In this document: in pieces, positions 6,788-36,522 of the stretch
Position numbering within the stretch: position 1 is the first letter of the stretch
How the letters are laid out: each line of letters opens with the position of its first letter
Source of the DNA: Dehalococcoidia bacterium
Lineage (GTDB): Bacteria > Chloroflexota > Dehalococcoidia > UBA2979
Reading direction: 5' to 3'
DNA length: 64,000 nt
NCBI GenBank assembly: GCA_965208885.1
Contig: CBDBPS010000002.1
Span: 1,879,538 to 1,943,537, forward strand
Notes under the pieces: generated by a model
Database searches by the model: none
What the model was told of the DNA's origin: nothing
What the model saw: the letters and a program-made list of their open reading frames with translations, nothing else
Program-made: the position numbers and the translations under genes

Positions 6788-7096
6788 GTGAGGGAAGCGC
6801 CCGGCGTGGCGCCCATTCGGCCGGCTCGAAGTGACAACGGCGCGCTCGTTGGGGGATGGGAAGGGACCGTGCGGACACTCGTCGCTACCACCGACATCGC
6901 CGGCGCCACCGCTCCTACCGTGCGCCCCGAACACATGGAGCGCATCGAGGCGGCCGCGGCAGAGGTCCTCAGCGCCAACACGCGCCGGGCCTACGCGAGC
7001 GCGTGGCGCGCGTGGGTGGCGTGGTGCGCGGCCGACGGCGGCAGGCGCGAGGACGGGCAGGAGGCCTGCCGGGCGCGGGCGCTCAGTCGCCCTTGA
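6788..7096 (+). pseudogene. Tyrosine recombinase/integrase N-terminal (core-binding SAM-like) fragment. It is truncated where the 3' end of the convergent giant gene begins.
   Basis: LSANTRRAYASAWRAWVAWCAADG resembles the CB-domain motif of XerC/phage integrases. No catalytic domain follows. The ORF runs into the stop region of the 7083-14696 gene. Confidence 0.5.
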
Positions 7097-15772: not shown

Positions 15773-16418
15773 AGTGGTGCTGTCCGGCTGATCAATCGCT
15801 GAGCGTGAGGGTCGCGCCCTTACCTTGCGCAAGGGGCGGTTCGCGCCGCCGGGCGCCCCCACGGATGAGGCGGATTTACGTGGCGTCGTGCGAGTCGGAA
15901 ACGGGGGTCGCCTGGCGGCTCTTCCAGGTCCTTACAAGCCGTTCGAGTGGAGGAGTGGTGCTGCAGGGTATGTCCGCGCACTTGGGTGGCGCCTCCAGCT
16001 GCGCTGTTGTGCCGGGGACTGCAGGGCGACCGCGAGGGCCATCCCACCAACAACTATTATCGCGGAGCGCGTGTGATGTATCTGTAAGGAATTGCGTGAT
16101 TAATATGTCCTGTAGTGTCAGTTTTGCATGATCTCCCCTGGAGTTGAGCCATGCCCGTCCGACGCCTGGGCATGGGCAACTCCCTCCTCGGTGGGAGTGC
16201 CCAAAAACTCGCATCCCTGCTGGACCAGGATTCGGGGTCAAGACCACCATGCCGCGACAGCGTGCTGGCCGACCGGTCGGAGATAACACGACTCAAAGAC
16301 AGCCCTGGCGGCCCAGGTCGCCATTGTCGAAGACAGCGACTACGACGCAGGCGCGACCCGGATCGCGGAACGCGTCGACGCCGACGTGTCGCCCACCCGG
16401 GCCCGCTCGGAGGAAGAG

Positions 16419-17045: not shown

Positions 17046-17249
17046 CGCCCAGACATTCTGACTGGAAAACCGCCGTCGGTTCCGGCTCTCTTGCTTCGCC
17101 GACTGGAATGGTCTGGGGACGATCAGAATGGCGCACGCGTGGCCCTCCCGTGTGTTCCGACCGACTGCAACGCCTGCCCCGGCAACGATGCGAGGCCAGA
17201 CCGTCCGTCGCCCCGGCGGGCCTGGCTGCTCCAGGCCGGGGGGCTCACG

Positions 17250-20200
17250 GTGATCGGTGGTTGCCGCGTGGCGGCCGGGCGGGCCCTCGTCGTGATCGCT
17301 CTGGGTATCGCCCTCTATGGCCTTGTGGCCCCGCGCTTCGGCGACCCGCCTGCCGCGGCACAGGAGGGTTCCGTCCCGGCCCGACCCACGGGCCTCACGG
17401 TCACCAGCGTCAGCCACAACTTCGTCGAACTGAGCTGGGACGACCCCGTCGACCCGTCCATCACCCATTACGAGGTGCTGCGGCGCGACCCGGCCGTCCA
17501 CGCCGTCGGCGAGTTCGAGACGGTCGACCCGGGCACCGGCTCGAACGCCACCAGCTACCGCGACGGCAGCGTGTCGCCTGGGCGGAGCTATCTCTACCGG
17601 GTCAAGGCAGTGAATCCCCACGGAAGCAGCGAGCAGTCGGGGTACGCCCGGGCCCACACCCCGGCGGCTCCTGCCATCGAAGAGTCCCATGCCGGGAACG
17701 GCGTGAGGCAGGCTCCCCCCGGCGCCGAATCGACCGATGCGGACCTGAGCGCGCTCAGCCTCAGCGCCGGGACGCTCGCCCCTGCCTTCGACCCGGCCCG
17801 GACCTCCTATACGGCGTCGGTGGAGCACTCGCAGTCCCGGGTCACGGTGACCGCCACGGCCTCCGATGCAGCCAACGCCACGGTCGAGTTCCTCGACGGC
17901 GACGACATGACGCTGGTGGACGCCGACGGCAACACCGAGGGCCACCAGGTGGACCTCGCCGTGGGCGACAACACGGTCAAGGTGAAGGTGACCGCCGAGG
18001 ACAACGCCACGATCCGGACCTACACGCTGGTCGTCACCCGCGCCGAATCGGACAACACCGACCTGAGCGACCTCAAGGTCAACGGCGTCAGCGTTCCCGG
18101 GTTCAGCGCCCACGTGTCGTACGGTGCGGTGGGCGTGCAATACGGCGTCGCCCCCTCGGTGACGCGGGTAACGGTTGAGGGCGTCACCGCCGACTCCAAC
18201 GCCGGGGTGGAGTACTCGGGCGCCGACGCCGACGGCGGGACCGGCGGGCAACAGATCGACCTGCTCGAGGGCGGCAATGAGCTGACGATCACCGTCACGG
18301 CGGCCGACGGCGTCACCACCAGAGACTACCTCGTCAGCGTCAACCGGGGGACGAACGCTCCCTTCGGCTGGCGGGCGCATGACGACTTCGACACGCTCCG
18401 GGCGGGTGGGACTGTCCTTCCCCAGGGCATGTGGTCCAACGGCACGACCTTGTGGGTGACGGACGACTTCGATGCGAACGACAAGCTCTTCGCCTATGTG
18501 GTAGCCACCGGGTTGCGGGATCCCGACAAGGACTTTGACACCCTGCAAGCGGCCGGGAACGAGTCCATGAGAGGCATCTGGTCGGACGGCACGACCATGT
18601 GGGTGGTGGACTGGCTCGACGAGAAAATCTACGCCTACGACCTGGAGACGCGACAGCGGAACTCCGGCAAGGACTTCAACTCCCTGCAAGCGGCCGGGAA
18701 CACCAGCCCCGCGAGCATCTGGTCGGACGGCATGACCATGTGGGTGGCGGACTGGGAGGACGACAAGCTCTACGCCTACGACCTGAACACGCGGCAGCGG
18801 GACTCCCGAAGAGACGTCGACACCCTGCGAGCGGCCGGGCAAACCTACCCTCTGGGCATCTGGTCGGACGGCACGACGATATGGGTGGGAGACTCTTTCG
18901 ACGAAAAGCTCTACGCCTACGACCTGGCGAGCGGGAAGCGGGACCGCGGCAGGGACTTCGACACTCTGGTGGCGGCCGGGAACCGCAGCCTCAGGGGCCT
19001 CTGGTCCGACGGCGCCACCATGTGGGTATCGGACAGATCCGAGGACAAGCTCTTCGCCTACAACATGCCCGGCAACGCCGACCTGACCACGCTCAGCATC
19101 AGCCCCGGGACGCTGGCCCCCGCCTTTCACCGGGTCGAGACCTCCTACACGGCGTCGGTGGTGCATTCGCAGTCCCGGGTCACGCTGACCGCCACGGCGT
19201 CCGATGCGGACGACGCCACCATCGAGTTCCTGGACGCCTCGGACGCGGCGCTGGATGACGCCGACGGCAACACCACAGGCCACCAGGTAGACCTCGCCAC
19301 GGGCGAGAACACGATCAAGGTGAAGGTGACCGCCGCAGACAACGCCACGACCCGCACCTACACGCTGGTCGTCACCCGCGCCGAATCGGACAACACCGAC
19401 CTGAGCGATCCGCAGGTCAACGGCGTCAGCGTTCCCGGGTTCAGCGCCAACGCGTCGTACAGTGCGGTGGGCGTGCAATACGGCGTCGCCCCGTCGGTGA
19501 CGCGGGCGACGATTCGGGGCGTCACCGCCGACTCCAACGCCACGGTGACCTACTCGGGCACAGACGCCGACGGCGGGACCGGCGGACACCAGATCGACCT
19601 GCTCGAGGGCGCGAATGAGCTGACGATCACTGTCACCGCCGCGGACGGCGTCACAACCAGAACCTACCCCGTCAGCATCAACCGGGGGACGGACGCCCCC
19701 TTCGGCTGGCGGGCGCAGGACGACTTCGACGCCCCGTTTGCACCTGGGAACGGAGCTCCCGATGGCCTCTGGTCGGACGGCACGACCATGTGGGTGGCGA
19801 GCGAGGCAGAAAGCAAGATCTTCGCCTATGTGCTGGACACCGGCTTGCGGGATCCCGGCAATGACTTCAACGGCCTCATGGCGGCCGGGAACATCACCCC
19901 CAGAGGATTGTGGTCCAACCGCACCACCATGTGGGTGGTGGACAGGATTCACGAGAAGATCTACGCGTATCAGCTCGCCACCCGCCAGCGAGACCCCGAC
20001 AAGGACTTCACCGCCCTGGCGGCGGCCGGGAACGACGATCCCGGGGACATCTGGTCCGACGGCACGACCATGTGGGTGGCGGACCAGGATGACAAGAAAC
20101 TCTATGCCTATCAGCTCGCCACCGGGCAGCGGGACGCCAGCAAGGACTTCAACACGTTGGCGTCCGGCAACAGTTACCCCGAGGGCATCTGGTCCGACGG

Positions 20201-23200
20201 CACGACTCTGTGGGTAGGAGACGAGGATGACGACAAGCTCTACGCCTACGACCTGGCTACCGGGAAGCGCGACTCCCGCATGGACTTCACGACCCTGCGA
20301 GGGGCCGATAACATCCGGTTCAGGGGCATCTGGTCCAACGGCACGATCATGTGGGTGACGGACCGAGTTGCGGACAAGCTCTTCGCCTACAACATGCCGG
20401 GCAACGCCGACCTGAGTGCGCTCAGCCTCAGCGGCGGGACGCTGGACCCCACCTTTCACCGGGTCGAGACATCCTACACGGCGTCGGTGGTGCATTTGCA
20501 GCCGACGATCACGGTGACCGCCACGGCGTCCGATGCGGACAACGCCACCGTCGAGTTCCTGGACGCCTCGGACGCGGCGCTGGATGACGCCGACGGCAAC
20601 ACCGATGGCCACCAGGTAGACCTCGCCGTGGGCGACAACACGATCAAGGTGAAGGTGACCGCTGCAGACGACGCCACGACCCGCACCTACACGCTCGTCG
20701 TGAAGCGTGCGCGGTCAACCTCCACTAAACTGAACGATCTGCGGATCGACGGTGTCAGCGTTCCCGGGTTCGACGCCGACGCTGACTACAGCACACTAGG
20801 CGTGCAGTACGGCGTGGGTCCCTCGGTGACGCGCGTGACGGTTGAGGCCACCGCCGCCGAAGCCAACGCCACGGTTACCTACTCGGGCACGGACGCCGAC
20901 GACGTGGCCGACGGTCATCAGTTGGACCTGAGCGTGGGCGCCAATGAGATGTCCATCACCGTCAGGGCGGACGGCGCCACGACCAGAAGGTACAAGGTCA
21001 GCGTCAACCGGGGGTCGGACGCCCCCTTTGGCTGGAAGGCGCAGGACGACATCGACACCCTGCGTGCGGCCGGCAACAGATCACCCGAGGGCCTCTGGTC
21101 GGACGGCACGACCATGTGGGTGGTCGAAGACCTCTACCCGCACGACAAGTTGCTGGCCTACACGCTCGACACCGGGCTACGGGATCCGAGCAAGGACTTC
21201 AACGGCCTCCCGCCGGCCGGGAACATAAACGCCAGGGGGTTGTGGTCGGACGGCACGACCATGTGGGTGGCGGACTGGTTGGACGAGAAGATCTACGCCT
21301 ATGTATTGAGCACCTGGCAGCGGGCCCCCGGTAAGGACTTCAACGGCCTCACATCGGCCGGGAACACGCAGCCCAGAGGGTTATGGTCCGACGACACGAC
21401 CATGTGGGTGGTAGACGAGCAGGACAGAAAGCTCTACGCCTACGACCTGGACACGCGGCAGAGGGACTCCGACAAGGACTTCACTCTGGCCTTAGTCAAT
21501 ACCAGCCCGCAGGGAGTCTGGTCGGACGGCACCACGCTCTGGGTGGGAAACCATTCAAGTCACAAACTCTATGCCTACGACCTGGCGAGTGGGAAGCGGG
21601 ACCGCAGCAGGGACTTTGACACCCTGTTTGCGGCCGGAACCCGCGGCCTCAGTGGCATCTGGTCCAACGGCACGATCATGTGGGTGGTGGACCGAGTTGC
21701 GGACAAGCTCTTCGCGTACAACATGCCGGGCAACGCCGACTTGAGCGCGCTCAGCCTGAGCGCCGGGACGCTGGATCCTGCCTTCCACCGGGTCGAGACC
21801 TCCTACAGGGTCTCGGCGCCGGCGTTCGCGTCCCGGATGACGGTGACCGCCACGGCGTCCGATGCGGCCGACGCGACGGTCGAGTTCCTGGACGGCTCGG
21901 ACGCGGCGCTGGATGACGCCGACGGCAACACGGCGGGCCAGCAGGTGGACCTGGCGGTGGGCGAGAACACCTTCAAGGTGAAGGTCACCGCCGGGGACGG
22001 CGCCACGACGCGCACCTACACGGTCGTCGTGACGCGCGCCGAACCGGCGCCGCTGAGCTTCGAGTCCTCCTCGCTGAGCGTCCCGGAGGGGGGCTCGGCC
22101 ACGGTCGTGCTCAACCTCGAGCGGGCGCCCGGCCGTCAGACCGTGGTCCCGCTGGAGGCGGTCACCGCCGGCGGCGACGCCTACCCGGGCGTGCCGCAGA
22201 GCGTGACGTTCGCCGCCACGGCGACGTCGGCGTCGTTCAGCTTCTCCGCCGGAACCGACGATCTCGTCGTCGAGGATGACGAGACCGTCACCGTCTCGTT
22301 TGGCGCGCTGCCCGAGGGTGTGACCGCGGGCAGCCGCTCAACGACCACGGTTACCATTGAGGACAACGATGAACCGAGCTGGGCGCTCTCGGTCGCCCCG
22401 GCCTCGATTGCCGAGGCGAGCACGTCGTCGTCAACGGTGTCGGTGAGCAGCGGCGGCGTGACGTTCACGGGCGCGAAGACGGTCAACCTCACCTTCGCGG
22501 GCACGGCGACCAGGGACGCCGACTACTCGGTGGCGGCCGAGACGCTGACCCTCGCGGAGGGCCAGACGACGGTCTCCGCCACCGTCGTCAGCGCGCTGGA
22601 CGACACTGTCGCGGACGCGGGCGAGCGCATCCTCATCACGGCCACGCTGGACGGCTCGAGGATCGGGACCCAGCAGGTGGTCGCCGTCGTCGACGACGAC
22701 GAGCCGGCCACCGGCATCGCGCTCAGCGTGGCGCCCTCGCGGGTGGACGAGGACGGGGGCGCCACGACGCTGACGGTGACGGGGACGCTCGACGGCTCGC
22801 CGCTCACGACGGCCACGGCGGTGTCGCTCACGCTGGCGGCGGGCACGGCCACCGTGACCGACGACTACACCGTCAACGCGTCCACGGCCACGCTCACGAT
22901 CCCGGCGGCGGCCCCCTCGGGGACGGCCCGCTTCACGCTGACGCCCGCCGACGACCAGCTCGACGACGACGACGAGACGGTGACGATCGGGGCGACGACG
23001 ACCTCCGCCCTGACGCTGTCGCCGTCTACGCTGACGGTCACGATCGCCGACAACGACGAGCCGAATGCCGCGCCGGTGTTCAACCCCCAGGCGGTGACGC
23101 GCACCCTGGTGGAGAACAGCGCGGGAGGCGTCGCGCTGGGCGCGCCGGTTGCCGCGACCGACGCGGACAACGACCAGCTGTCCTACTCGCTGTCAGGCGC

Positions 23201-26200
23201 CGGCGCCTCGTCGTTCACGATCCACGCCACGACCGCGCAGATCCGCACGGCGCCGGGCGCCGCCTACGACCACGAGACCAGGAACCGCTACGTGCTCACG
23301 GTCACCGCCGACGACTCCCGCGGCGGCGTCGCGACCGCGACGGTCACCGTCAGCGTCAGCGACGTGGACGAGCCGCCCCCCGTGCCCGCTGCCCCGCTGG
23401 TGTCGCCCACGCGCGGCTCCACCGAGAGCCTCGATGTCTCGTGGACCGCGCCCGCCGCCGCCGGCCGGCCCCCCGTCAGCGGCTACGAGCTGCGCTACCG
23501 CGCAGGCGGCGACGCGTGGGCCGAGTGGCCACACGCCGGCACGGGCATCGTGGCCACGATCAGCGGACTGCTCGCCGGTAGCAGCTACGAGGTGCAGGTG
23601 CGCGCCGCCAACGACGAGGGGGTGAGCGGCTGGTCCGCCTCGGGCATGGGGACCACCCTCACCGAAGACGCGCTGTGCCTGGGAGGGGGCCCGGCGCCGA
23701 CCGAGATCACGGTCACGTCCGTGCCGGTCGTGGTCGCCTCCACGCCCAACGTCTACTTCGTGCTCTACGTGACCCACGACCTGGACGGCGAAGAGGTGTG
23801 GACTCCCGTCTCCGTGACCATGGGAGAAGCGGTCAGGACCACGCTCGCCGAGAACGTCGACGCTCTGCCCGCCTCGCGTTACCGCGTCGAGCGCTACCTC
23901 GTCTCCGACCCGGCCGACGTCGACGGCGACTGCATCGACGACCTCACCGAACTCGCCGCCATGGGGAGTCAGAACCCCCTCAACCCGGCCCCCGCCATCG
24001 CCGTCAGGGACGGCGGCGTGGCCATCCCCGGTCGCGAGATGTTCGACGCGCTCTCCTTCACCGATCCCAACGCCGAGTACCAGTATGTGAAGTTCGCGCT
24101 GCTCGGCATGGACGGCGAGCGCCCGCTGCTCTTCTTCATCAACTCCACGACCCACCTGCGCCACCCGATCGCCTTCTTCCTGGAGGAGATCGGCCACACG
24201 GGGCCGAATCGGCCCTGGGCGATCCCCGGCGAGATCGTCTACGACCCCGACCTGATCGCGTCCGACGGCACACGCGGCGTCTACTACTTCTGGTTTATCC
24301 GCTACGACGGCCGCTACACCCCCGAGCTGCTGGAACGCGCCTACGCGATGCTCGGCGCCGCGATGCCGCTGCTGGGTGACGACCTGCCGATGTACATCCC
24401 CAACCGCCGCCTTCCCGGTTACCGGGCCGACCTGGAGACGCTCAGGGCATCGCGTATCCCGCTGCTGTTCAACGAAGACATCTTCGCGAATACCGAGTTC
24501 CTCGCCCTCAATCCCGAGACGGGCTACGGCCGGCTGCGGGTCATGGAGCAGGGCGAGCGCCCCAACCCTCGCAACGTCGTGGTCTACGAGGCGCTGCCCA
24601 ACGAGCTGCCCCGCGTCGCCGGCATCATCAGCACCGTGCCGCAGACGCCGCTCTCCCACGTCAACCTGCGCGCCGTGCAGGACGGCGTGCCCAACGCCTT
24701 CATCAAGGACGCGCTCGACAAGGACGAGGTCGACGACCTGCTCGACCAGTTCGTGCGCTACGAGGTGACCGCGGACGGCTACGAGTTGCGCGGCGCGACG
24801 CCGCGGGAGGTGGATGCCCACTTCGCCCGCTCCCGGCCCGCCCACGTGCAGACGCCCCAGCGCGACCTCTCCGTCACGACCATCACGCCCCTCAGCGACA
24901 TCACCTTCGACGACTGGAAGGCCTTCGGCGTCAAGGCCGCCAACGTAGCCGTGCTCGGGACGCTGGGCTTCCCCACGGGCACCGTGCCCGAGGGCTTCGC
25001 CATCCCCTTCTCCTTCTACGACGAGTTCATGAAGAACACCCCCCTGGGCGAGGAGACCGTCTTCGGCAAGGGCAAGGGCCCCGACGAGGACCAGTTCACG
25101 CTGGCCGCCGACGTGAAGCTCATCGACGCCGTCAAGGCGATCCTGGCCCACCCCAGGTTCCAGACGGACTTCGAGATCCAGGACGAGATGCTGGGTGACC
25201 TGCGCGACGCCATCGAGGACGCCCAGAGCCCGCAGTGGATCATCGACGCCCTGACCGCCATGCACGCGACGTACCCGGTGGGGCAGTCGCTGCGCTACCG
25301 CTCGAGCACCAACAACGAGGACCTGCCGGGCTTCAGCGGAGCGGGCCTGTACGACTCCAACACGCAGCACCCCGACGAGACCACAGAAGACGGCATCGAC
25401 AAGTCCATGAAACAGGTGTTCGCGAGCCTCTGGAACTTCCGCGCGTTCGCCGAACGGGAGTTCCATCGCATCGACCACCTCGCCACCGCGATGGGCGTGC
25501 TGGTACACCCGAACTACTCCGATGAGCGGGCCAACGGCGTGGCGGTGAGCTTCGACCCGATCCGCGGCTACTCCGACTACTACTACCTCAACACCCAGCT
25601 CGGCGAGGACCTGGTCACCAATCCCGAGGCGCACTCGGAGCCGGAGGAGATCCTCCTGCACCGCAGCGGCGACTTTTACGAAGTGCTGGCGACCTCCAAC
25701 CAGGTGGACGACCCGGGCACCCTGCTGATGAGCGACGAGCAGATGGACCAGCTGGCGGACCACCTCACCGTGATCCACGAGCGCTTCGCGCAGCTGTACG
25801 CCGGGCTGCCGTTCGCGATCGAGATCGAGTTCAAGATCACTGTCGACAACATCCTGGCGATCAAACAGGCCCGGCCGTGGGTCTTCGGCGGGGCGGCCAC
25901 CACCACTACCGGCTTCGGGGGCATCGGCCTGATCGGCGGTGGCGGTGGTCCCTCGGGGCCGGAGCCGAGCGATGTCGAGTTCGAGTGGAACGTGACTCGC
26001 GACATCGAGCAGCTCGACAGCACTCACGAGAAGCCCAGCGGCTCCTGGTCCGATGGCACGACGCTCTGGCTGCTGCAGAACGGCTCAGGCGCCGACGACG
26101 CCGTCTACGCCTACGACCTCGCGACGGGCGAGCGCCTCGAGGAGCGTGAGTTCGACCTCGACGATACGAACCGCGCCCCGCGCGGCGTCTGGTCCGACGG

Positions 26201-27602
26201 CGAGACCGCCTTCTGGGTCTCCGACAGCGGCCAGGACAAACTCTTCGCCCACGACCTCGCGACCGGTGAGCGCACCCCGGCGCGCGACATCGAGCTCGCG
26301 GACCGCAACGCCGACCCGCGCGGCATCTGGTCCGACGGCGAGACGGTCTGGGTGCTCGACGGCGGCAAGAACGGCCTCTTCGGCTACGACCTGGCGAGCG
26401 GCGCGTTGCTCGGCGAGTGCGCCCTCGACCCCGCCAACGGCGACCCGCGGGGCCTGGGGTCGGACGGCGTCACGGTCTGGGTCTCCGACCACGCCGCCAA
26501 GCGCCTCTTCGCCTACCGCCTGCCCCAGCGCGGTGCGCTGGGCGCGGAAGACAAGGCGCTCGAGCGCATCCGCGCCGAGGAGTTCGCCGAGCTGAGCGGC
26601 GCCGGCAACAACAGCCCGCGCGGCCTCTGGTCCGACGGCGCGGTGATGTACGTCGCCGACGAGAGCGACGGCCGCGTCTACACCTACAACATGCCCACCG
26701 CGATCGACGCCCGTCTCTCCTCGCTCGCGCTCAGCGGCGTGGAGTTTGGGGAGTTCGACCCCGCCGTGAGCGAGTACACCGGCGTCCCCGACGACGGGGT
26801 CACGCAGACGACGGTGGTGGCGGAGCCGGTCCAGTCCGGGGCCACCGTCACCACCGAGCCTGCGGACGCCGACGAGGCGGCCGACGGCCACCAGGTCGCC
26901 CTCGAGGGCGTCGCTGAGGTCGCCGTGACGGTGACCTCGCCGGACCGCAGCCGCGAGCGCGTCTACCGGGTGGCGCTGGCGGACGTCGCCGAGGAGCAGG
27001 TGACCGGACCGTCGGCGAGCTGCCTGCGCGGCGCGGTCAGCGTCGGCTTCAACCTCGTCGTCTACGAAGGCGGCAGCATCGAGGACCTCGTGGCCTGCGC
27101 CGAGGGCCGCCACGTCACGGCGCTCTACTCCCTGCACGAGGGGGAGTACGTCTCGTACATCCTCGGCGCACCGGAGTTTGTGAACCGCACCTTCAGCAGG
27201 CTGTTCACCGCGGGTGTGCCCGTGCTCACCGCGCTGACCGCCCGCAGCGACGGGCCGCCCACCGCAGCCCCGGCCGCCGCTGCCCCGCCCACCGGGGGCG
27301 CCGTTGACGTCGAAGCGTGGCCGGCGTGCCTGCGCGGCGAGATCGCAGCGGGCTTCAGCCTCGTGCTCTACGCCGGCGGCAGCGTCGACGACCTCGCGGC
27401 CTGCGCGGGGGAGACCGGCGTCTCGGCACTCTACGCCGTGCACGAGGGCATGTGGGTCTCGTACATCCTCGGCGCACCCGACTTCGTCAACCGCGGCTTC
27501 AGCGCACTGTTCCCCGACGGCCTCACCGCGGCGACGCCGCTCGTCGTTCGGAGCGAAACGCCTCCTGCGGGTGGCCGGATGGCAACGGCAAGCAGTGAGT
27601 AG
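17250..27602 (+). CDS. Giant secreted/surface protein with FN3, 3x [cadherin-like sandwich + 6 WSDG blades], Calx-beta, cadherin, FN3, a PEP-utilizer-like phosphotransferase unit (swivel-His + ATP-grasp PPDK_N-like), and the conserved C-terminal module.
   Basis: The ORF is open from 17091. The likely start is the GTG at ~17250-17268, before the signal/TM stretch GRALVVIALGIALYGLVAP. A Calx-beta unit reads LSFESSSLSVPEGGSATVVL...VTIEDND. The swivel-His domain reads RVAGIISTVPQTPLSHVNLRAVQDGVPNAF. The PPDK_N signature reads LRYRSSTNNEDLPGFSGAGLYDSNTQ. It ends with GGGGGPSGPEPSDVEFEW, blades and 2x CLRG. Confidence 0.85.
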   Translation: MIGGCRVAAGRALVVIALGIALYGLVAPRFGDPPAAAQEGSVPARPTGLTVTSVSHNFVELSWDDPVDPSITHYEVLRRDPAVHAVGEFETVDPGTGSNATSYRDGSVSPGRSYLYRVKAVNPHGSSEQSGYARAHTPAAPAIEESHAGNGVRQAPPGAESTDADLSALSLSAGTLAPAFDPARTSYTASVEHSQSRVTVTATASDAANATVEFLDGDDMTLVDADGNTEGHQVDLAVGDNTVKVKVTAEDNATIRTYTLVVTRAESDNTDLSDLKVNGVSVPGFSAHVSYGAVGVQYGVAPSVTRVTVEGVTADSNAGVEYSGADADGGTGGQQIDLLEGGNELTITVTAADGVTTRDYLVSVNRGTNAPFGWRAHDDFDTLRAGGTVLPQGMWSNGTTLWVTDDFDANDKLFAYVVATGLRDPDKDFDTLQAAGNESMRGIWSDGTTMWVVDWLDEKIYAYDLETRQRNSGKDFNSLQAAGNTSPASIWSDGMTMWVADWEDDKLYAYDLNTRQRDSRRDVDTLRAAGQTYPLGIWSDGTTIWVGDSFDEKLYAYDLASGKRDRGRDFDTLVAAGNRSLRGLWSDGATMWVSDRSEDKLFAYNMPGNADLTTLSISPGTLAPAFHRVETSYTASVVHSQSRVTLTATASDADDATIEFLDASDAALDDADGNTTGHQVDLATGENTIKVKVTAADNATTRTYTLVVTRAESDNTDLSDPQVNGVSVPGFSANASYSAVGVQYGVAPSVTRATIRGVTADSNATVTYSGTDADGGTGGHQIDLLEGANELTITVTAADGVTTRTYPVSINRGTDAPFGWRAQDDFDAPFAPGNGAPDGLWSDGTTMWVASEAESKIFAYVLDTGLRDPGNDFNGLMAAGNITPRGLWSNRTTMWVVDRIHEKIYAYQLATRQRDPDKDFTALAAAGNDDPGDIWSDGTTMWVADQDDKKLYAYQLATGQRDASKDFNTLASGNSYPEGIWSDGTTLWVGDEDDDKLYAYDLATGKRDSRMDFTTLRGADNIRFRGIWSNGTIMWVTDRVADKLFAYNMPGNADLSALSLSGGTLDPTFHRVETSYTASVVHLQPTITVTATASDADNATVEFLDASDAALDDADGNTDGHQVDLAVGDNTIKVKVTAADDATTRTYTLVVKRARSTSTKLNDLRIDGVSVPGFDADADYSTLGVQYGVGPSVTRVTVEATAAEANATVTYSGTDADDVADGHQLDLSVGANEMSITVRADGATTRRYKVSVNRGSDAPFGWKAQDDIDTLRAAGNRSPEGLWSDGTTMWVVEDLYPHDKLLAYTLDTGLRDPSKDFNGLPPAGNINARGLWSDGTTMWVADWLDEKIYAYVLSTWQRAPGKDFNGLTSAGNTQPRGLWSDDTTMWVVDEQDRKLYAYDLDTRQRDSDKDFTLALVNTSPQGVWSDGTTLWVGNHSSHKLYAYDLASGKRDRSRDFDTLFAAGTRGLSGIWSNGTIMWVVDRVADKLFAYNMPGNADLSALSLSAGTLDPAFHRVETSYRVSAPAFASRMTVTATASDAADATVEFLDGSDAALDDADGNTAGQQVDLAVGENTFKVKVTAGDGATTRTYTVVVTRAEPAPLSFESSSLSVPEGGSATVVLNLERAPGRQTVVPLEAVTAGGDAYPGVPQSVTFAATATSASFSFSAGTDDLVVEDDETVTVSFGALPEGVTAGSRSTTTVTIEDNDEPSWALSVAPASIAEASTSSSTVSVSSGGVTFTGAKTVNLTFAGTATRDADYSVAAETLTLAEGQTTVSATVVSALDDTVADAGERILITATLDGSRIGTQQVVAVVDDDEPATGIALSVAPSRVDEDGGATTLTVTGTLDGSPLTTATAVSLTLAAGTATVTDDYTVNASTATLTIPAAAPSGTARFTLTPADDQLDDDDETVTIGATTTSALTLSPSTLTVTIADNDEPNAAPVFNPQAVTRTLVENSAGGVALGAPVAATDADNDQLSYSLSGAGASSFTIHATTAQIRTAPGAAYDHETRNRYVLTVTADDSRGGVATATVTVSVSDVDEPPPVPAAPLVSPTRGSTESLDVSWTAPAAAGRPPVSGYELRYRAGGDAWAEWPHAGTGIVATISGLLAGSSYEVQVRAANDEGVSGWSASGMGTTLTEDALCLGGGPAPTEITVTSVPVVVASTPNVYFVLYVTHDLDGEEVWTPVSVTMGEAVRTTLAENVDALPASRYRVERYLVSDPADVDGDCIDDLTELAAMGSQNPLNPAPAIAVRDGGVAIPGREMFDALSFTDPNAEYQYVKFALLGMDGERPLLFFINSTTHLRHPIAFFLEEIGHTGPNRPWAIPGEIVYDPDLIASDGTRGVYYFWFIRYDGRYTPELLERAYAMLGAAMPLLGDDLPMYIPNRRLPGYRADLETLRASRIPLLFNEDIFANTEFLALNPETGYGRLRVMEQGERPNPRNVVVYEALPNELPRVAGIISTVPQTPLSHVNLRAVQDGVPNAFIKDALDKDEVDDLLDQFVRYEVTADGYELRGATPREVDAHFARSRPAHVQTPQRDLSVTTITPLSDITFDDWKAFGVKAANVAVLGTLGFPTGTVPEGFAIPFSFYDEFMKNTPLGEETVFGKGKGPDEDQFTLAADVKLIDAVKAILAHPRFQTDFEIQDEMLGDLRDAIEDAQSPQWIIDALTAMHATYPVGQSLRYRSSTNNEDLPGFSGAGLYDSNTQHPDETTEDGIDKSMKQVFASLWNFRAFAEREFHRIDHLATAMGVLVHPNYSDERANGVAVSFDPIRGYSDYYYLNTQLGEDLVTNPEAHSEPEEILLHRSGDFYEVLATSNQVDDPGTLLMSDEQMDQLADHLTVIHERFAQLYAGLPFAIEIEFKITVDNILAIKQARPWVFGGAATTTTGFGGIGLIGGGGGPSGPEPSDVEFEWNVTRDIEQLDSTHEKPSGSWSDGTTLWLLQNGSGADDAVYAYDLATGERLEEREFDLDDTNRAPRGVWSDGETAFWVSDSGQDKLFAHDLATGERTPARDIELADRNADPRGIWSDGETVWVLDGGKNGLFGYDLASGALLGECALDPANGDPRGLGSDGVTVWVSDHAAKRLFAYRLPQRGALGAEDKALERIRAEEFAELSGAGNNSPRGLWSDGAVMYVADESDGRVYTYNMPTAIDARLSSLALSGVEFGEFDPAVSEYTGVPDDGVTQTTVVAEPVQSGATVTTEPADADEAADGHQVALEGVAEVAVTVTSPDRSRERVYRVALADVAEEQVTGPSASCLRGAVSVGFNLVVYEGGSIEDLVACAEGRHVTALYSLHEGEYVSYILGAPEFVNRTFSRLFTAGVPVLTALTARSDGPPTAAPAAAAPPTGGAVDVEAWPACLRGEIAAGFSLVLYAGGSVDDLAACAGETGVSALYAVHEGMWVSYILGAPDFVNRGFSALFPDGLTAATPLVVRSETPPAGGRMATASSE
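17741..22030 (+). repeat. Intragenic tandem repeat, ~1.32-1.34 kb unit, x3 plus a partial fourth. Each unit encodes a cadherin-like sandwich pair plus a WSDG propeller.
   Basis: The near-identical segment gacctgagcgcgctcagcctcagcgccgggacgct...acggtgaccgccacggc recurs at 17741, 19081, 20401 and 21721. acctacacgctggtcgtcacccgcgccgaatcggacaacaccgacctgagcga recurs at 18021 and 19353. Confidence 0.85.
24390..25880 (+). other. PEP synthase/PPDK_N-like ATP-grasp nucleotide-binding domain embedded in the giant protein, preceded at ~24560-24700 by a PEP-utilizer swivel-His-like segment.
   Basis: SLRYRSSTNNEDLPGFSGAGLYDSNTQ (~25291-25370) matches the RSSA..ED...SFAGQ..T signature of PEP synthase, PPDK and rifampicin phosphotransferase. 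The upstream TPLSHVNLRAVQDGVPNAF resembles the GGRTSHAAIIARELGIP mobile-His motif. Confidence 0.55.
25930..27602 (+). repeat. Copy 3 of 4 of the conserved 3' cassette (C-terminal module).
   Basis: GLIGGGGGPSGPEPSDVEFEWNVTRDIEQLD followed by WSDG blades, a cadherin-like domain and 2x CLRG. Confidence 0.8.
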
Positions 27603-28790: not shown

Positions 28791-29108
28791 GTGGTCAGTC
28801 CGGTCGGCAACCCCCCCGGCTGTAAAGGTGGCGCGCGCGTGGCCGTTCAGGACCTCGCCGTCGTACGCGGACGCGATTCACTCGTGCACTCGCGGACGCA
28901 TCTCATTAACCACGTGCGCGACGACGTCAGGCGCGGGCCGCCGCGCTGCCGTTGTCGACTTCGCCGCATGCGGGGAACGAGAGCGCTCCGAGTCTGTCTG
29001 AGATAGATGCGCGTTCGACTCCTGCCATGAACCCCGGTCCGTGCCGACGGGAATAGGACAGGTTAGGTGAGCCCATCAACACGCGTTTCTGGAGGCGTCC
29101 GTCGGCGG

Positions 29109-32100
29109 ATGGCTCCCCTCGGCGCGGCGCTGCTCCTCATCGCGGCGGGTCTCACACCGGCTCCCGGCGCCTTCGCGCAGACCACCGCCGCCCCAGTGAT
29201 CACGAGTGAGGGCCCCTTCACCGTCGACGAAGGCGAGACCGCCATCGCCACCCTCACGGCGACCGATGCGGACACGGCTCCCGGCGATCTGACCTGGTCG
29301 AGGACCGGCGGCGCCGACAGCGACAAGTTCTCGCTGACTGCCGCCGGCGTCCTCACCTTCGCCGCCGCCGGGGACTACGAGGACCCCGACGACGCCGACG
29401 GCGACCGCTCCTACGAAGTCACCGTGCAGGTCTCGGACCGCGACAACACAGACACCGCGAACCTCGTCGTCATCCTTGCGAACGTAACGGAGCTCATCAC
29501 CACAATTGCGGGACCCACGACCGTCTCCTTCGCCGAGAACGGTGCTGGACGCGTGGCCACATTCACCGCCTCGACGGATGAGGACCGCGACGGCATCGAG
29601 TGGATCCTCGCCGGGACGGATCGCGAACACTTCACGATCGACAGTCCGGCGGGTGCGCTCCGCTTCCACATCGACCCGGTCTCGCCGAACATCTTCCCGA
29701 AGCTCCCGGACTTCGAGGACCCCAACGACGGCGGAACAGACAACGTCTACTCCATTACGCTGCTGGCCCGCGTTGGCTCCGCCATCAGTTCGTCGCACGC
29801 GGTCACGGTCACGGTGACCGATGAGGACGAGGGCGGCTCGCTGTCTTTCTCCTCGAAGCGTCCGCGCCAGGGCGTCGAGCTGACGGCGACGCTGAGCGAC
29901 CCGGACGGCGTCAGCGCCGGCACGGTCACGTGGCAGTGGGAGCGCTCGACGGGCCGCGACTCCTGGGCGGTTGTCGCCGGGGCAGCTTCCGGCAGCTACA
30001 CGCCGGTGGCCGCCGACACGAACGCCTTCCTGCGCGTCACCGCGACGTACGACGACGAGCACGGGGAGGACCATGGGGTTGCGGGGACGCCGCCCAACGT
30101 GGTGCTGGGACCGCTGCTGACGTCGGTGACGGTCACGACGAACAACGCGGCTAGCAACACCGCGCACGCCCTCCGGCCCACGTTTGACGCCGAGGTTCTG
30201 CACTACGGCATTGGCTGCGATGAAAGCGACACGATGGCGCTGACCCTGAGCGCACCTTCAGGGAGCCGTCTGGCCGTGGACGGGGAGCAGGTCGCACCGG
30301 GGACAGATGTTGAGTTGGGAGTGACCGAGACCACGAGCGTGCAGGTCACCCTCTCGGGCGGGGACGGCGCCGAGACCACCTATGTCATCCACTGCATGCC
30401 GCAGCAATTCTTCGAGTGGCAGATTATCAAACACGCGGGGACCTCCGGCGTCCTGGAGGATCTCATCGCGTTCGGGCACCCGGGGTACATCTCCTTCACG
30501 GACAACAATGGCGTTCCCAGGTACCTCACCCCGACTCTGGATGACCTCCGCCCGCCACGATTCTTCAAGATCGGCGTGTTCAGGGTCGGTGGGGACGGGG
30601 CGTTCCGGTACGCCTATCGCCGGCCAACGGAGACGCGCTCCAGCGCCTTCACCGTCCTGGACGCACAATTCAAGACCCATGCCGAGGGGATCCAGACCAG
30701 GCCGCCGCTCACACACACCGACAGCCACGACTTCCGCGTACTGGAGAACGGCGACTACCTGCTGCTCGCCTATAACAGCGCCATAAGGTATCTCGGCCAC
30801 CTCACGTTCCTCGACCCGATGAGAGACCCATCCGTCAAGGTGTATGACTCGGCGATTCAGATCGTGACGCCCCGGGGGCAGGCGAAATTCACCTGGAACT
30901 CATGGGATCACATGGCGATCGAGGACTGCGTGCAGCACCGCTTCCCGATACAGCATCCCGACACATCCTCGCGCAACCTGGAGCACCCCGGATATGCCCA
31001 CGTGAACTCGGCACAGGCTGTCGACGATCTCATCGTGGCCTCGTTCCGCGGCTGCTCGAAGGTTCTCGGCATTGATGTCACAACGGGGGAGGTGGCCTGG
31101 CGGATTGGCCTCAGCAATCTGAGCGAGGACGACTGGGCGGGACGCGACATCGGGCCGGCTCCGATGGGTATCGTCAATGACCCCGAGGGGCAATTCTGCG
31201 GCCAGCATGCAGCCCAAATTCTCCCGAACGGTCACCTCCTGCTCTACGACAACGGCACCCGTTGCGTCATGAATCCGTGGACGAACGAGCCGCTTGGAAG
31301 GGACTTCGACACCTTCAGCCGTGCCGTCGAGTACGCCCTGGATCACGAAAACAACGAGGTGGTGTTCGTGCGCGACCACTCGCTGCGGGGGGAGAGGAGC
31401 GCCTTCGCGTGGTCCAGCGGCGATGTGGAGGTCCTCGATAACGGCGACTGGCTGGTCAGTTGGGGGCGTACCCGCAGCACCGATCCGTTGCTTACCGACA
31501 ACGAAACGGTTACGCAAGTCGACCCGGCCACGGGTGTGGAGAAGTTCGCCATCAGGTTTGTCACCGCCGACAGCGCGAATGCCCCCCGCATCATTGCCTC
31601 CGCGGTCCCCCCCGAGGCGCTGGCCCCGCAGCCTGGTTCCCTCACGGCGCACCTTCCCGCAAGCTCCCACTCCTCGGTCTTCCACGGCGGCGCCACCGAC
31701 TCGCCGCAGGTGGTCGTCGCCTTCAGCCGCCCGGTCGTGGACTTCGACGAGACCTCGCCATCGTTCAACGTAACGGGGGCCACGGTTGCGAGCGTCAGCG
31801 CCCATGTCGTCGCGGGCGAGCCCTCCAACGCCTACCTCGTGACACTCACCCCGGACGGCGATGGCGCGATCAGCTTCAGCCTCGTCGCCGGCCATGCCTG
31901 CGCCGCCGGAGGGATCTGCACCGCCGACGGCGCAACGCTGTCCGCAGCGCCGGCGACATTCACCATCGGGCCGGCTCCCAGCGTCGCCTTCGAGGAGGCC
32001 GCGTACAGCGTCGGCGAGGGTTCCGCACGGAGCGTCGCGCTGCGCCTGAGCGCCGCGCACCGAGGCGCGCGCGGCGTGACCGTCCCCGTGCTGCTGCACA

Positions 32101-35021
32101 CGACCGGCACCGCTTCGGACAGCGACCTGATGGGCGGCGGGAGCGTCACGTTCGAGGCAGGCGAGACGCGCAAGACTATCACGGTAGAGGCGCTGCACGA
32201 CGACCTCATCGAAGGCAACGAGACCGCCATGCTTGCGTTCGGGGATTTGCCGGACGGCCTCACCGCGAGTGCGACCGCCACGGCCACCGTGACGGTGACC
32301 GACACGGACCGGGCGCAGATCGACTTCCGCGTCGGGGTGTCGCAGGTCTCCGAGGGGGGCGAGACCCGGCTCACCTTCACGATCACCAACGGCGTCACCT
32401 TCGAGCGGGACCAGCCCATCGACCTGACCATCGGCGGGACGGCCACGCCGGGAGACGACTTCACGCTCGTCGATGCCGCGAGCAACAACCTGTCCGCGCC
32501 CTATGCTCTCACCTTCCCGGCCGGGGCGAGCGCCATCGGCATGACGTTCCGCGCGGTCGATGACACGGACATCGAACCTGCAGCCGAAACGGTCATCATG
32601 AGCGCCCGGCTGGCACTTACCAACACCCTTCTGGGTACGCGCACGGTCGCGATTCCACCGAGCGACGTGCCCGACATCCCGGGCGTCGCGATGTTCGTCG
32701 GTGGCGGGAGCATGGTCACCGAGGGAGAGGACGCACCCTTCATCCTACTGCGCACCACGGCGACGAACCTGCCGGTCTCGGAGCCGCTGACAGTGTCCGT
32801 GGAGGTCACTGCGACGGGCTCGACGCTCAGCGGTGCGACGCCCACCAGTGCGACATTCGACGCGAACAGCTATCTCGCAACCGTGTGGCTCACCACCCTC
32901 GACGACCAGATCGTGGAACCGCCGGGGAGCGTAACCGTCCTCGTGCTCGGCAGCACCAGCAACCCGCCCGTGTACCTCACCGGCGCCAACAACGCATTCA
33001 CCCTGGCCGTTAGCGACAACGACGTGGCGGCGTTCACGGTGTCGGCGAGCGCCGAGGAGGTGGCCGAGGGCGCCACGGTCACGGTCACCATTGCGGCCGA
33101 TGGCGTCACCTTCGCCGAGCCCCAGGCGATCACGCTGATGCTCGGCGGGACGGCGACGCCTGGGGAGGACTTCAGCATCTGGAGTGGCGCCGCGGAGCTG
33201 TCGGACCCGTACACGGTCAAGCTGCCCGCGGGGGCGAGGTCGGCGCTCGTCAGCATCCGCACGAAGCCCGACGGCGAAGACGACCAGGGTGAGACGGTCG
33301 AACTCACAGCCAGCCACGATGGGAACGCCATCGGCGCTGTCACGGTCACGATCACCGCCCCCGCGCCGCCGCCCGTCGTCCTGGGCAGCTTCGGAGGTGG
33401 CGGCGGCCCCTCCGGCCCGACGCCCAGCGATGTTGAGTTCGAGTGGAACGTCGAGCGCGACATCGAGGAGCTGGACAGCGGTCACAACGCCCCGACTGGC
33501 GCCTGGTCCGACGGCGTGCGGGTCTGGCTGTTGCAGAACGGCAGCGGCGCCGACGACGCCGTCTACGCCTACGACCTCACGACTGGCGAACGTGTCGAGG
33601 ACCGCGAGTTCGAGCTCGACGATACGAACCGCGCCCCGCGCGGCGTCTGGTCGAACGGCGAGACGGTGTGGGTCTCCGACAGCGGCCAGAACCGCCTCTT
33701 CGCCTACGACCTCGAGAGCGGTGAACGCGTTCCCGAACTCGACCTGGTACTCGCTGCACGCAACCGCGACGCGCGCGGCATCTGGTCCGATGGCAAGACG
33801 ATGTGGGTGCTCGACGGCGGGAAGGACAGCCTCTTCGCCTACGACCTCGCCGGCGGCGACCTCATCGCCGAGTACGCCCTGGACGGCGCCAACAGCGACC
33901 CTCATGGCCTCTGGTCCGACGGTGTCAGCGTTTGGATCTCCGACCACACCGCCAAGCGCCTCTTCGCCTACAGTGTGCCGTCGCTGCCTGAGTCAGAGCC
34001 TCCCAAGGAGCCGCCCGCCCTCGAGCGCGTCGTCGCCGAGGAGTTCGAGGAGCCGGGCCGCGTCGGCAACAACAGCCCTCGAGGCATCTGGTCGGACGGC
34101 GAGGTCATGTATGTCGTCGACGCGCTCGACGGCCGCGTCTACACGTACAACATGCCCGATGCCATCGAAGTGCGCCTCGCCTCGCTCGCGCTCTCAGGCG
34201 TCGACATCGGCGAGTTCGACCCCGGCGTGAGGGAGTACGACGGCTCGGCGGACACAGGCGTGAGCGAGACGACGATCGAGGCGGAGGCGATGCAGCGCCT
34301 CGCCGACATCGACATCGACCCGCCCGATGCCGACGAGGGGGCGGATGGCCACCAGGTCACGCTCGAGGGCGTCGCCGAGATCACCGTGACCGTGACCTCG
34401 GCGGACGGCGCGCGGAAGCGAGAGTACCGCGTGCGGCTCGGCCAGGAGGAAGCGACCGGGACCGCCGCGGAGTGCCTGCGGGGCGCCGTGGCGGTGGGCT
34501 TCAGCATCCTCGTCTACCAGGGGGGGAGCGTCGGCGACCTGCTCGGCTGCGCGGAGAGCCGCCACGTCAGGGCCCTGTACGCCCTGCACGAGGGCGAGTA
34601 CCTCTCCCACATCCTCGGGGCGCCAGACTTCGTGAACGCCGCCTTCGGGGAGCTGTACCGCGACGGTGTTCCCGCGCTCACCGCGCTGGTCGCCCGCAGC
34701 GTCGGGCCGGCCACGCCGGACCCGGCCGCCGGCGGCGGCGCTGACGGCACAGCGTGGCCGGTCTGCCTGCGCGGCGAGATCGTCGAGGGCTTCAGCCTCG
34801 CGCTGTACGAGGGCGGCAGCGTCGACGCACTCGCAGCCTGTGCGCAGAGCCTGGGCGTCACGGCCGTCTACACCCTGGCCGATGGCGAGTACGTCTCCTA
34901 CATCCTCGGAGCCCCGGAGTTCGTGAACGCGGGCTTCGCCGAGCTGTTCGCCGGTGGTGTTCCGCCCATCACTCCATTGGTCGCCAGAAGCGAAACGCCT
35001 CCCGCGGGTGGACTACGATGA
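29109..35021 (+). CDS. Giant secreted protein with cadherin-like repeats, a possible arylsulfotransferase (ASST)-like beta-propeller, several Calx-beta domains and the conserved C-terminal module.
   Basis: The ATG at 29109 is preceded by GGAGG. The signal peptide reads MAPLGAALLLIAAGLTPAPGAFAQT. A cadherin repeat reads DVTELITT...DEDEG. The propeller region at ~30390-31560 carries ILPNGHLLLYDNGT, VLENGDYLLLAYNS and VLDNGDWLVSWG motifs. Calx-beta units read VAFEEAAYSVGEGSARSVAL...VTVTDTD. The C-terminal module begins SFGGGGGPSGPTPSDVEFEW. Confidence 0.85.
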   Translation: MAPLGAALLLIAAGLTPAPGAFAQTTAAPVITSEGPFTVDEGETAIATLTATDADTAPGDLTWSRTGGADSDKFSLTAAGVLTFAAAGDYEDPDDADGDRSYEVTVQVSDRDNTDTANLVVILANVTELITTIAGPTTVSFAENGAGRVATFTASTDEDRDGIEWILAGTDREHFTIDSPAGALRFHIDPVSPNIFPKLPDFEDPNDGGTDNVYSITLLARVGSAISSSHAVTVTVTDEDEGGSLSFSSKRPRQGVELTATLSDPDGVSAGTVTWQWERSTGRDSWAVVAGAASGSYTPVAADTNAFLRVTATYDDEHGEDHGVAGTPPNVVLGPLLTSVTVTTNNAASNTAHALRPTFDAEVLHYGIGCDESDTMALTLSAPSGSRLAVDGEQVAPGTDVELGVTETTSVQVTLSGGDGAETTYVIHCMPQQFFEWQIIKHAGTSGVLEDLIAFGHPGYISFTDNNGVPRYLTPTLDDLRPPRFFKIGVFRVGGDGAFRYAYRRPTETRSSAFTVLDAQFKTHAEGIQTRPPLTHTDSHDFRVLENGDYLLLAYNSAIRYLGHLTFLDPMRDPSVKVYDSAIQIVTPRGQAKFTWNSWDHMAIEDCVQHRFPIQHPDTSSRNLEHPGYAHVNSAQAVDDLIVASFRGCSKVLGIDVTTGEVAWRIGLSNLSEDDWAGRDIGPAPMGIVNDPEGQFCGQHAAQILPNGHLLLYDNGTRCVMNPWTNEPLGRDFDTFSRAVEYALDHENNEVVFVRDHSLRGERSAFAWSSGDVEVLDNGDWLVSWGRTRSTDPLLTDNETVTQVDPATGVEKFAIRFVTADSANAPRIIASAVPPEALAPQPGSLTAHLPASSHSSVFHGGATDSPQVVVAFSRPVVDFDETSPSFNVTGATVASVSAHVVAGEPSNAYLVTLTPDGDGAISFSLVAGHACAAGGICTADGATLSAAPATFTIGPAPSVAFEEAAYSVGEGSARSVALRLSAAHRGARGVTVPVLLHTTGTASDSDLMGGGSVTFEAGETRKTITVEALHDDLIEGNETAMLAFGDLPDGLTASATATATVTVTDTDRAQIDFRVGVSQVSEGGETRLTFTITNGVTFERDQPIDLTIGGTATPGDDFTLVDAASNNLSAPYALTFPAGASAIGMTFRAVDDTDIEPAAETVIMSARLALTNTLLGTRTVAIPPSDVPDIPGVAMFVGGGSMVTEGEDAPFILLRTTATNLPVSEPLTVSVEVTATGSTLSGATPTSATFDANSYLATVWLTTLDDQIVEPPGSVTVLVLGSTSNPPVYLTGANNAFTLAVSDNDVAAFTVSASAEEVAEGATVTVTIAADGVTFAEPQAITLMLGGTATPGEDFSIWSGAAELSDPYTVKLPAGARSALVSIRTKPDGEDDQGETVELTASHDGNAIGAVTVTITAPAPPPVVLGSFGGGGGPSGPTPSDVEFEWNVERDIEELDSGHNAPTGAWSDGVRVWLLQNGSGADDAVYAYDLTTGERVEDREFELDDTNRAPRGVWSNGETVWVSDSGQNRLFAYDLESGERVPELDLVLAARNRDARGIWSDGKTMWVLDGGKDSLFAYDLAGGDLIAEYALDGANSDPHGLWSDGVSVWISDHTAKRLFAYSVPSLPESEPPKEPPALERVVAEEFEEPGRVGNNSPRGIWSDGEVMYVVDALDGRVYTYNMPDAIEVRLASLALSGVDIGEFDPGVREYDGSADTGVSETTIEAEAMQRLADIDIDPPDADEGADGHQVTLEGVAEITVTVTSADGARKREYRVRLGQEEATGTAAECLRGAVAVGFSILVYQGGSVGDLLGCAESRHVRALYALHEGEYLSHILGAPDFVNAAFGELYRDGVPALTALVARSVGPATPDPAAGGGADGTAWPVCLRGEIVEGFSLALYEGGSVDALAACAQSLGVTAVYTLADGEYVSYILGAPEFVNAGFAELFAGGVPPITPLVARSETPPAGGLR
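30390..31560 (+). other. Possible ASST-like (arylsulfate sulfotransferase family) beta-propeller domain.
   Basis: Repeated L.NG.LL/LL.YDNG-type strands and overall spacing recall ASST-family propellers. This is an eyeball assignment only. Confidence 0.3.
33375..35021 (+). repeat. Copy 4 of 4 of the conserved 3' cassette (C-terminal module).
   Basis: GSFGGGGGPSGPTPSDVEFEWNVERDIEELD followed by blades, a cadherin-like domain and 2x CLRG. Confidence 0.8.
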
Positions 35022-36500: not shown

Positions 36501-36522
36501 TCACCACTGCACGAACATCGGT

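Follow-up and report, generated by a model that had tools for sequence, protein, structure and literature searches.

A putative exported dikinase cassette in a giant multi-repeat protein of a Dehalococcoidia bacterium, with relatives in five bacterial phyla

We analysed a 64,000-nucleotide stretch of contig CBDBPS010000002.1 from a Dehalococcoidia bacterium (hereafter the window), in which a giant open reading frame (ORF) on the forward strand contains a dikinase-like unit that we refer to as the cassette. The original prediction, made from the letters of this DNA, had described a catalytic-looking unit of the dikinase superfamily embedded in an exported multi-repeat protein, and this description stands. 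Both of the phosphotransferase signatures that it named are present and in frame in ORF 17091..27602 (+): LRYRSSTNNEDLPGFSGAGLYDS begins at residue 2734 (nt 25290), within the match to the ATP-grasp family PPDK_N, and RVAGIISTVPQTPLSHVNLRA begins at residue 2508 (nt 24612). Pfam finds eight Cadherin-like, two fn3, three Calx-beta and one Cadherin domain in the giant ORF together with a single PPDK_N domain, and these matches and the hydrophobicity of the protein confirm the signal peptide and the FN3, cadherin and Calx-beta domains that had been reported. The only strongly hydrophobic segment covers residues 52-84, and translation from GTG 17250, which is probably the true start and has a G-rich stretch upstream, gives a Sec signal peptide that ends in AAAQ before EG; relatives have equivalent AxAQ-type signal peptides. 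An antisense ORF (23193..26027) is a high-GC shadow; all homology and domain evidence lies on the forward strand. The placement of the unit at 23690-25890 identified the right region, but the conserved unit is slightly wider (nt 23676-25895; Table 1). It starts at the conserved Cys2196 (..C.GGG..PTP..V.V..VPIVV.ST...YFVLYV.H), ~35 residues further upstream than first noted, and ends with ARPWVF at residue 2935, directly before a Gly-rich linker. Five parts can be distinguished, these being a beta-sandwich, a DxDxDG loop, an alpha/beta domain, a swivel phospho-His domain and the PPDK_N ATP-grasp domain.

The ATP-grasp domain matches PF01326 over residues 2612-2930 well above the gathering cutoff (E=1.7e-18; 67.4 bits against 27; 306 of 328 profile positions), and the same Pfam family is matched by all 50 relatives tested. 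PEP synthase and PPDK provide the best sequence matches (NF005057, E=4e-15), and a profile of the family finds PEP synthase structures (PDB 9dae) at E=1.4e-12. The signature RSSTNNEDLP..GAGLYDS (residues 2737-2756) lies inside the ATP-grasp match. When the cassette is aligned to structures of PEP synthase and rifampicin phosphotransferase (RPH) and to E. coli PpsA, GVK2615AAN corresponds to GGKNAS, R2737SS..ED to RSSATAED, LYDS2756 to QHDT of RPH, and IEIE2913F and KQ2926AR2928PW to DIEW and VQARPE of PpsA, respectively. K2615, R2737 and S2756 thereby align with RPH residues K22, R117 and T136, and E2913 with E297 through the common IEW/IEF motif. All four RPH residues touch the ATP phosphates/nucleotide or Mg, and K22, R117 and T136 are required for RPH function (PMC4844700). 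K2615, R2737, S2756, E2913, Q2926 and R2928 are invariant or nearly so in the family. The catalytic His and the nucleotide-binding Lys and Glu, for which the original prediction had proposed a check, are present and conserved, as is the nucleotide-binding Arg. At the level of sequence, both the profile match and the contact residues assign the cassette to the PPDK_N ATP-grasp family PF01326. The window copy also has a ~20-residue insertion relative to the family consensus (TPLGEETVFGKGKGPDEDQFTLAAD; residues ~2650-2675, ~25040-25120, +), between EFMK and the MLAD helix.

Upstream of the ATP-grasp domain lies the segment ...LPRVAGIISTVPQTPLSH2523VNLRAVQDGVPNAF..., in which the motif TVPQTPLSHVNLRA shows little or no variation among 50-100 relatives. 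AlphaFold2 (AF2) predicts a strand, an 8-residue loop, a short helix starting with His2523 and a further strand (predicted local distance difference test, pLDDT, 80-96 over the segment), which is the secondary-structure pattern of PpsA and the beta/beta/alpha arrangement of a phospho-His swivel, with His at the N-terminus of a short helix. Of the canonical swivel loop motif T/S-x-x-G-G-x-x-x-H (PMC12167813), the family loop retains Thr at -8 and the His, and the residue just before His is Ser, as it is in phenylphosphate synthase PpsA and in CreH. Sequence searches, including a profile search of the PDB, gave nothing significant for this domain, and its identification therefore rests on fold and conservation. 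The His segment of the original prediction is accordingly upheld by its invariant motif and modelled fold, although not by its sequence match, which is no better than chance; on these two grounds we regard the swivel phospho-His domain as real. As had been claimed, the domain order is permuted relative to PpsA, with the His domain before the ATP-grasp domain, but the distance between the two signatures is 214 residues (His2523 to Arg2737) rather than ~230.

The N-terminal ~270 residues have no Pfam match. An AF2 model of residues 2191-2485, built with 118 sequences, is confident (pLDDT 90; predicted template modelling score, pTM, 0.86) and consists of a beta-sandwich, an acidic loop and an alpha/beta domain. 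Within the acidic loop, conservation reaches at least 95% for D2276, D2278, D2280, D2283, D2284 and E2287, and Cys2196 and Cys2281 are kept in 84% and 96% of relatives, respectively, with a mean of 1.98 Cys per module; two conserved Cys and an invariant DxDxDG loop would be typical of extracytoplasmic proteins. Other conserved residues of the region are K2334, Y2348, N2351, H2358, S2454 and R2455. Because its position matches that of the acceptor-side domain in alpha-glucan, water dikinase (GWD) and RPH, we infer that the N-terminal domain binds the acceptor.

The cassette was compared with several known dikinases. From the published description of the plant and algal enzymes GWD1/PWD, acceptor-side domains are followed by a phospho-His domain and a C-terminal PPDK_N ATP-grasp domain, as in the cassette. 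The GWD His, which precedes the ATP-grasp domain, sits on a short helix, and the His domain is only distantly like those of PPDK and RPH in fold (PMC13553574). The acceptor of GWD is a polymer hydroxyl and not pyruvate. GWD, however, has CBM45/CBM20 modules and a helical central domain that the cassette lacks, and it is plastidial, with ATP at hand, whereas the cassette is exported. RPH (RPH-Lm; 5HV1, 5FBS) resembles the cassette in the four nucleotide-site residues listed above, in its swivel-His mechanism and in being a three-domain, single-chain small-molecule dikinase, but its order is ATP-grasp, rifampin (RIF)-binding domain and His, the RIF-binding domain is absent from the cassette, and RPH is cytoplasmic. 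PEP synthase (PEPS) has the GxK, RSS..ED, IEW/IEF and QARP motifs in common with the cassette, in which its GGxT[SC]H motif reads PQTPLSH; the cassette has neither its regulatory Thr nor its PEP/pyruvate TIM barrel, and PF02896, which represents this barrel, is matched neither in the window protein nor in 50 relatives. HpeHI, CreHI and phenylphosphate synthase PpsAB phosphorylate hydroxyls of non-central metabolites, but each is split into two cytoplasmic polypeptides, whereas the cassette is a single chain, and their acceptor domain is homologous to the RIF-binding domain of RPH, no counterpart of which is seen in the cassette. An assignment to PEP synthase or RPH, the enzymes to which the original prediction had likened the unit, did not survive scoring against curated models. 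The RPH models NF041857 and NF000283 give 38.9 bits against a cutoff of 999 and 25.6 bits against 1700, and the PEP synthase models TIGR01418/NF005057 give 47-55 bits against cutoffs of 598-740, with only the N-terminal ~230 profile positions covered. An identity as PEP synthase or RPH was rejected on these scores, which fall more than 500 bits under the cutoffs, together with the absence of the third domains and the different order. Judged from sequence, we classify the cassette as a new, previously undescribed family within the PEPS/PPDK/RPH/GWD superfamily; full-text searches of the literature turned up no description of it, and the source annotation of the relatives is "hypothetical protein" only. 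To our knowledge, the known dikinases of the superfamily (PEP synthase, PPDK, RPH, GWD and the phenol dikinases) are all intracellular. The present family differs from them in being consistently exported, in an acceptor domain without a known fold relative, and in having the GWD-type permuted order in bacteria.

With residues 2230-2940 as query, a search returned over 1,366 proteins. Individual identities to the query among the best 120 range from 57% to 78%, and for 115 of these the match covers 95% or more of the query. When 1.84 billion cluster representatives were searched with a profile, 1,890 matched below 1e-30; the 150 matches listed are all family members, and bridging relatives were not reached. 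Two proteins, P0121 (3,227 aa; ~2,600 bits) and P0122 (2,025 aa; ~2,000 bits), have scores well beyond those of the other matches, and each aligns to the profile in two distinct stretches, an indication from the sequence that each carries two cassette copies. In the GTDB set, which has one genome per species, at least 584 stretches encode the cassette, some of them on complete chromosomes, and the taxonomy, identity and neighbourhood figures given here refer to the best 79 of these loci. They belong to five phyla, namely Chloroflexota (Dehalococcoidia, Tepidiformaceae), Actinomycetota (Ca. Poriferisodalis, Aldehydirespiratoraceae and other Acidimicrobiia), Acidobacteriota (Terriglobia, Vicinamibacterales, Ca. 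Multivorans and Ca. Versatilivorator), Latescibacterota and Thermodesulfobacteriota. Poriferisodalaceae and Aldehydirespiratoraceae have been described as sponge-symbiont lineages, and the sponge Ircinia ramosa is the source of the SB0661 bins (PMC11706023). Several genomes hold two or three copies. Pairwise identity between modules is 49-99% (median 61%), and for 23 of the 79 the nearest relative belongs to another phylum, with identities of 91% between Thermodesulfobacteriota and Acidobacteriota, 88% between Actinomycetota and Chloroflexota, and 85% between Latescibacterota and Chloroflexota. The loci nearest to the window copy are two from Chloroflexota (78%) and one from Ca. Poriferisodalis (75%). 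These cross-phylum nearest relatives and the high module identity indicate, as far as sequences from metagenome-assembled genomes with possible binning errors allow, repeated horizontal transfer under strong purifying selection, the latter because the median of 61% and minimum of 49% hold across five phyla although the flanking domains are freely swapped.

The setting of the cassette in its relatives is equally varied. It may follow directly after the signal peptide or lie anywhere within proteins of 800 to more than 4,500 residues, with N-terminal extensions of 0-1,800 and C-terminal extensions of 0 to more than 2,000 residues, and it is fused to FN3, cadherin, Calx-beta, Big, SLH and pentapeptide domains; the combination with signal peptides or Calx-beta domains, for which the original prediction had proposed a database search, therefore recurs. 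An N-terminal hydrophobic signal segment is present in 171 of 206 complete-looking relatives, and the remaining 35 look like gene calls cut short, with starts that fall within a domain or within the signal peptide. By its sequence distribution the cassette behaves as a mobile unit and not as a one-off fusion. Further support for its export is provided by the window itself, in which a common tail ends all four giant ORFs (4849-6485, +; 7083-8703, -; 25896-27599, +; 33390-35018, +) and the cassette sits where subtilase and arylsulfotransferase (ASST) heads sit on this tail. Proteases and arylsulfotransferases of this sort are classic extracytoplasmic enzymes, and the shared slot is the strongest contextual argument for the cassette as an extracellular catalytic head.

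Taken together, these observations lead us to favour, with slightly better than even confidence, the view that the cassette is an exported, catalytically competent dikinase of a new family. The ATP beta-phosphate would most likely be passed via His2523 to an acceptor. By homology with PPDK, RPH and GWD, the C-terminal ATP-grasp domain would bind Mg-ATP and close on it, and the swivel domain would present His2523 to the beta-phosphate, giving a pyrophospho- or phospho-His intermediate as AMP and Pi leave. The swivel domain would then swing round and hand the phosphoryl group over to a hydroxyl of an acceptor bound by the N-terminal alpha/beta domain. Delivery outside the cytoplasm would be by the Sec signal peptide, and the enzyme would be displayed on adhesin-type repeats like the neighbouring protease and arylsulfotransferase heads. 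The data show the domain identities, the conserved residues, the export signals, and the distribution and horizontal spread of the cassette, whereas we infer catalysis, ATP as donor and the nature of the acceptor. Candidate acceptors include polymers of the host matrix, glycan polymers and phenolic metabolites; an action on xenobiotics, as the original prediction had suggested, may likewise be considered. We also entertain, as a possibility that we hold only tentatively, that the cassette is a symbiosis factor exchanged by horizontal transfer and acts as a true extracellular ATP-dependent dikinase, with its novel-fold N-terminal domain selecting a target from the host. This could be a glycan or protein of the matrix, a metabolite of phenolic or brominated type, or a component of the cytoskeleton or phagosome. 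If so, sponge-associated bacteria from five phyla would be phosphorylating their host surroundings, an extracellular chemistry not described so far. The up to 91% identity between phyla, the multiple copies and the cross-phylum mixing mark the cassette as a strongly selected, shared trait of the sponge-symbiont habitat. The identity of the acceptor would give a molecular handle on how symbionts interact with sponge host tissue, and would also bear on ATP-dependent phosphorylation outside bacterial cells.

Several observations weigh against an exported, active dikinase. The main difficulty is the source of extracellular ATP, which is not normally available outside bacterial cells, and a Sec signal alone reaches only the periplasm in diderm hosts (Acidobacteriota, Latescibacterota). 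A template-free AF2 model of the whole module (residues 2191-2945) is of moderate quality (pLDDT 70, pTM 0.60). The window His segment has no Pfam match to PF00391 even at E<=10, none of 50 relatives matches PF00391 at E<=0.01, and hhalign comparisons of the segment with E. coli PpsA (E=0.79) and PtsI domains are not significant; moreover, the family loop TVPQTPLSH has Q-T in place of the canonical GG. The alpha/beta domain (residues 2296-2465) has no structural relative in the PDB and no informative relative, and no conserved neighbour gene that would hint at a substrate or partner was found at the 79 loci.

The same evidence for an active ATP-grasp domain, a His domain and export would also suit a consumer of extracellular ATP that hands the phosphate to water (ATP -> AMP + 2 Pi) and clears host-released ATP in the sponge mesohyl, thereby blunting purinergic or danger signalling. 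Secreted nucleoside diphosphate kinases and apyrases of pathogens offer an analogy, and the family occurs in animal-associated bacteria. Both GWD and RPH, in addition, turn over ATP independently of substrate (PMC13553574, PMC4844700). We nevertheless consider this unlikely, given that the strongly conserved N-terminal ~270 residues with their invariant K, H, R, Y and N imply a specific acceptor site rather than water, and that a simple phosphatase or apyrase would be cheaper. It is similarly improbable, in our estimation, that the chemistry takes place inside host cells or phagosomes, where ATP exists, with the cassette phosphorylating a host target and so preventing digestion of the symbiont; the role that adhesin repeats and the shared tail would then have in host contact or uptake is just as doubtful. 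The confinement of the cassette to a set of lineages with recognised sponge symbionts among them, its horizontal sharing within this set, often as several copies per genome, and its fusion to eukaryote-like FN3 and cadherin domains are in keeping with such an effector. No translocation domain or dedicated secretion system, however, was found in the window or in the flanks of the relatives, gelsolin-like matches stay under any accepted threshold, and the disulfide-type Cys pair and Ca loop fit an oxidising, Ca-rich extracellular milieu and not the cytosol.

The awkwardness of ATP use at an extracellular site, the loss of GG from the swivel loop and the failure of PF00391 to match could also be explained by a pseudo-enzyme or binding module, in which the fold is kept as a scaffold for a nucleotide, a phosphorylated ligand or a host molecule without phosphotransfer. 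Pseudo-enzymes typically lose catalytic residues, whereas K2615, R2737, S2756, E2913, Q2926, R2928 and H2523 are all invariant or nearly so across phyla and the 60% cross-phylum identity spans all three catalytic parts; because every mapped catalytic residue is conserved, we regard this explanation, which the original prediction had also offered, as very unlikely. An artefact, in which misassembly or a frameshift joined an adhesin gene to an ordinary cytoplasmic gene for PEP synthase or RPH, is favoured by the Pfam and NCBIfam family names only; it is hardly conceivable and is refuted by at least 584 independent in-frame loci, including complete chromosomes and always in exported multi-domain proteins, and by the >500-bit shortfall and missing third domains against the PEPS and RPH models. 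A polymorphic toxin was separately considered and rejected, as the cassette is not C-terminal, no conserved immunity-like gene accompanies it, and a survey of polymorphic toxins lists no dikinase.

Table 1. Features of the window discussed in the text (nucleotide positions within the window).
Feature	Position	Strand	Residues, basis and remarks
Giant ORF	17091..27602	+	3,503 aa from first TTG; ORF list and translation
Sec-type signal peptide, (M)IGGCRVAAGRALVVIALGIALYGLVAPRFGDPPAAAQ before EG	17250..17363	+	sole hydrophobic 19-mer of the whole protein
Dikinase-like cassette	23676..25895	+	aa 2196-2935, ~740 aa; full-length identity of 58-78% to the relatives listed, stops exactly where the shared G-rich linker/tail starts
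N-terminal beta-sandwich	23676..23906	+	aa 2196-2272; AF2 pLDDT ~95, strands at model residues 14-80; begins at Cys2196
DxDxDG-type calcium-binding loop, PADVDGDCIDDLTEL	23910..23954	+	contains Cys2281; conservation in relatives
Central alpha/beta domain	23976..24485	+	aa 2296-2465; putative acceptor-binding
Swivelling phospho-histidine-type domain	24486..24854	+	aa 2466-2588; candidate His2523 is codon CAC 24657-24659
PPDK_N ATP-grasp domain	24906..25895	+	aa 2606-2935; key residues K2615, R2737, S2756, E2911/E2913, Q2926, R2928
G-rich linker and C-terminal tail	25896..27599	+	tail ~560 aa; four-way protein alignment, similarity visible throughout
S8 subtilase + P-domain giant protein	6..6488	+	
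S8 subtilase + P-domain giant protein	7083..14897	-	
Giant exported arylsulfotransferase protein	29067..35021	+	ASST, PF05935, aa 553-833; Calx-beta, cadherin-like
Serine-type recombinase	35344-36582		island
ThiF+DUF6791	37940-39166		island
AbiEii/AbiEi	40903-42111, 43040-43849	-, +	island
DUF6361 + helicase-C protein	47157-53487		island
Schlafen AlbA_2	54960-56120		island
Fic	56493-57764		island
Radical SAM protein	62770-63672	-	island

The common tail comprises a GGGGGPSGP linker, about six WSDGxTxWV...LFAYDL blade-like repeats, a cadherin-like sandwich and two tandem ~95-residue two-Cys domains that have no Pfam match. It recurs in loci L013, L054 and L002 (blastn) and may be a common anchoring or sorting module. 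Gene context gives no clue to the substrate, because clustering of the flanking ORFs of the 79 loci shows no recurrent neighbours except further giant repeat proteins, present at 50 of 79; a similar ASST giant adjoins the cassette in just two loci, and the small ORFs that follow the window gene lack conservation.

Elsewhere in the giant ORF, residues ~210-1600 (window 17700-21900, +) form three tandem ~450-residue super-repeats that resemble one another at the DNA level too, each consisting of two cadherin-like sandwiches and five WSDGTTMWV blade-like repeats; these blades yield spurious matches to NCH3 and DUF6242. A 389-residue ORF (14693-15862, -) carries a lipobox-like signal (..MAAAVGC before S) and a linker rich in Pro and Ala. 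It overlaps the minus-strand subtilase ORF at the 5' end of the latter, in another frame, and may be either the true N-terminus of the subtilase, split off by a frameshift, or a separate gene. The right half of the window, from 35344 to 63672, looks like a mobile or defence island.

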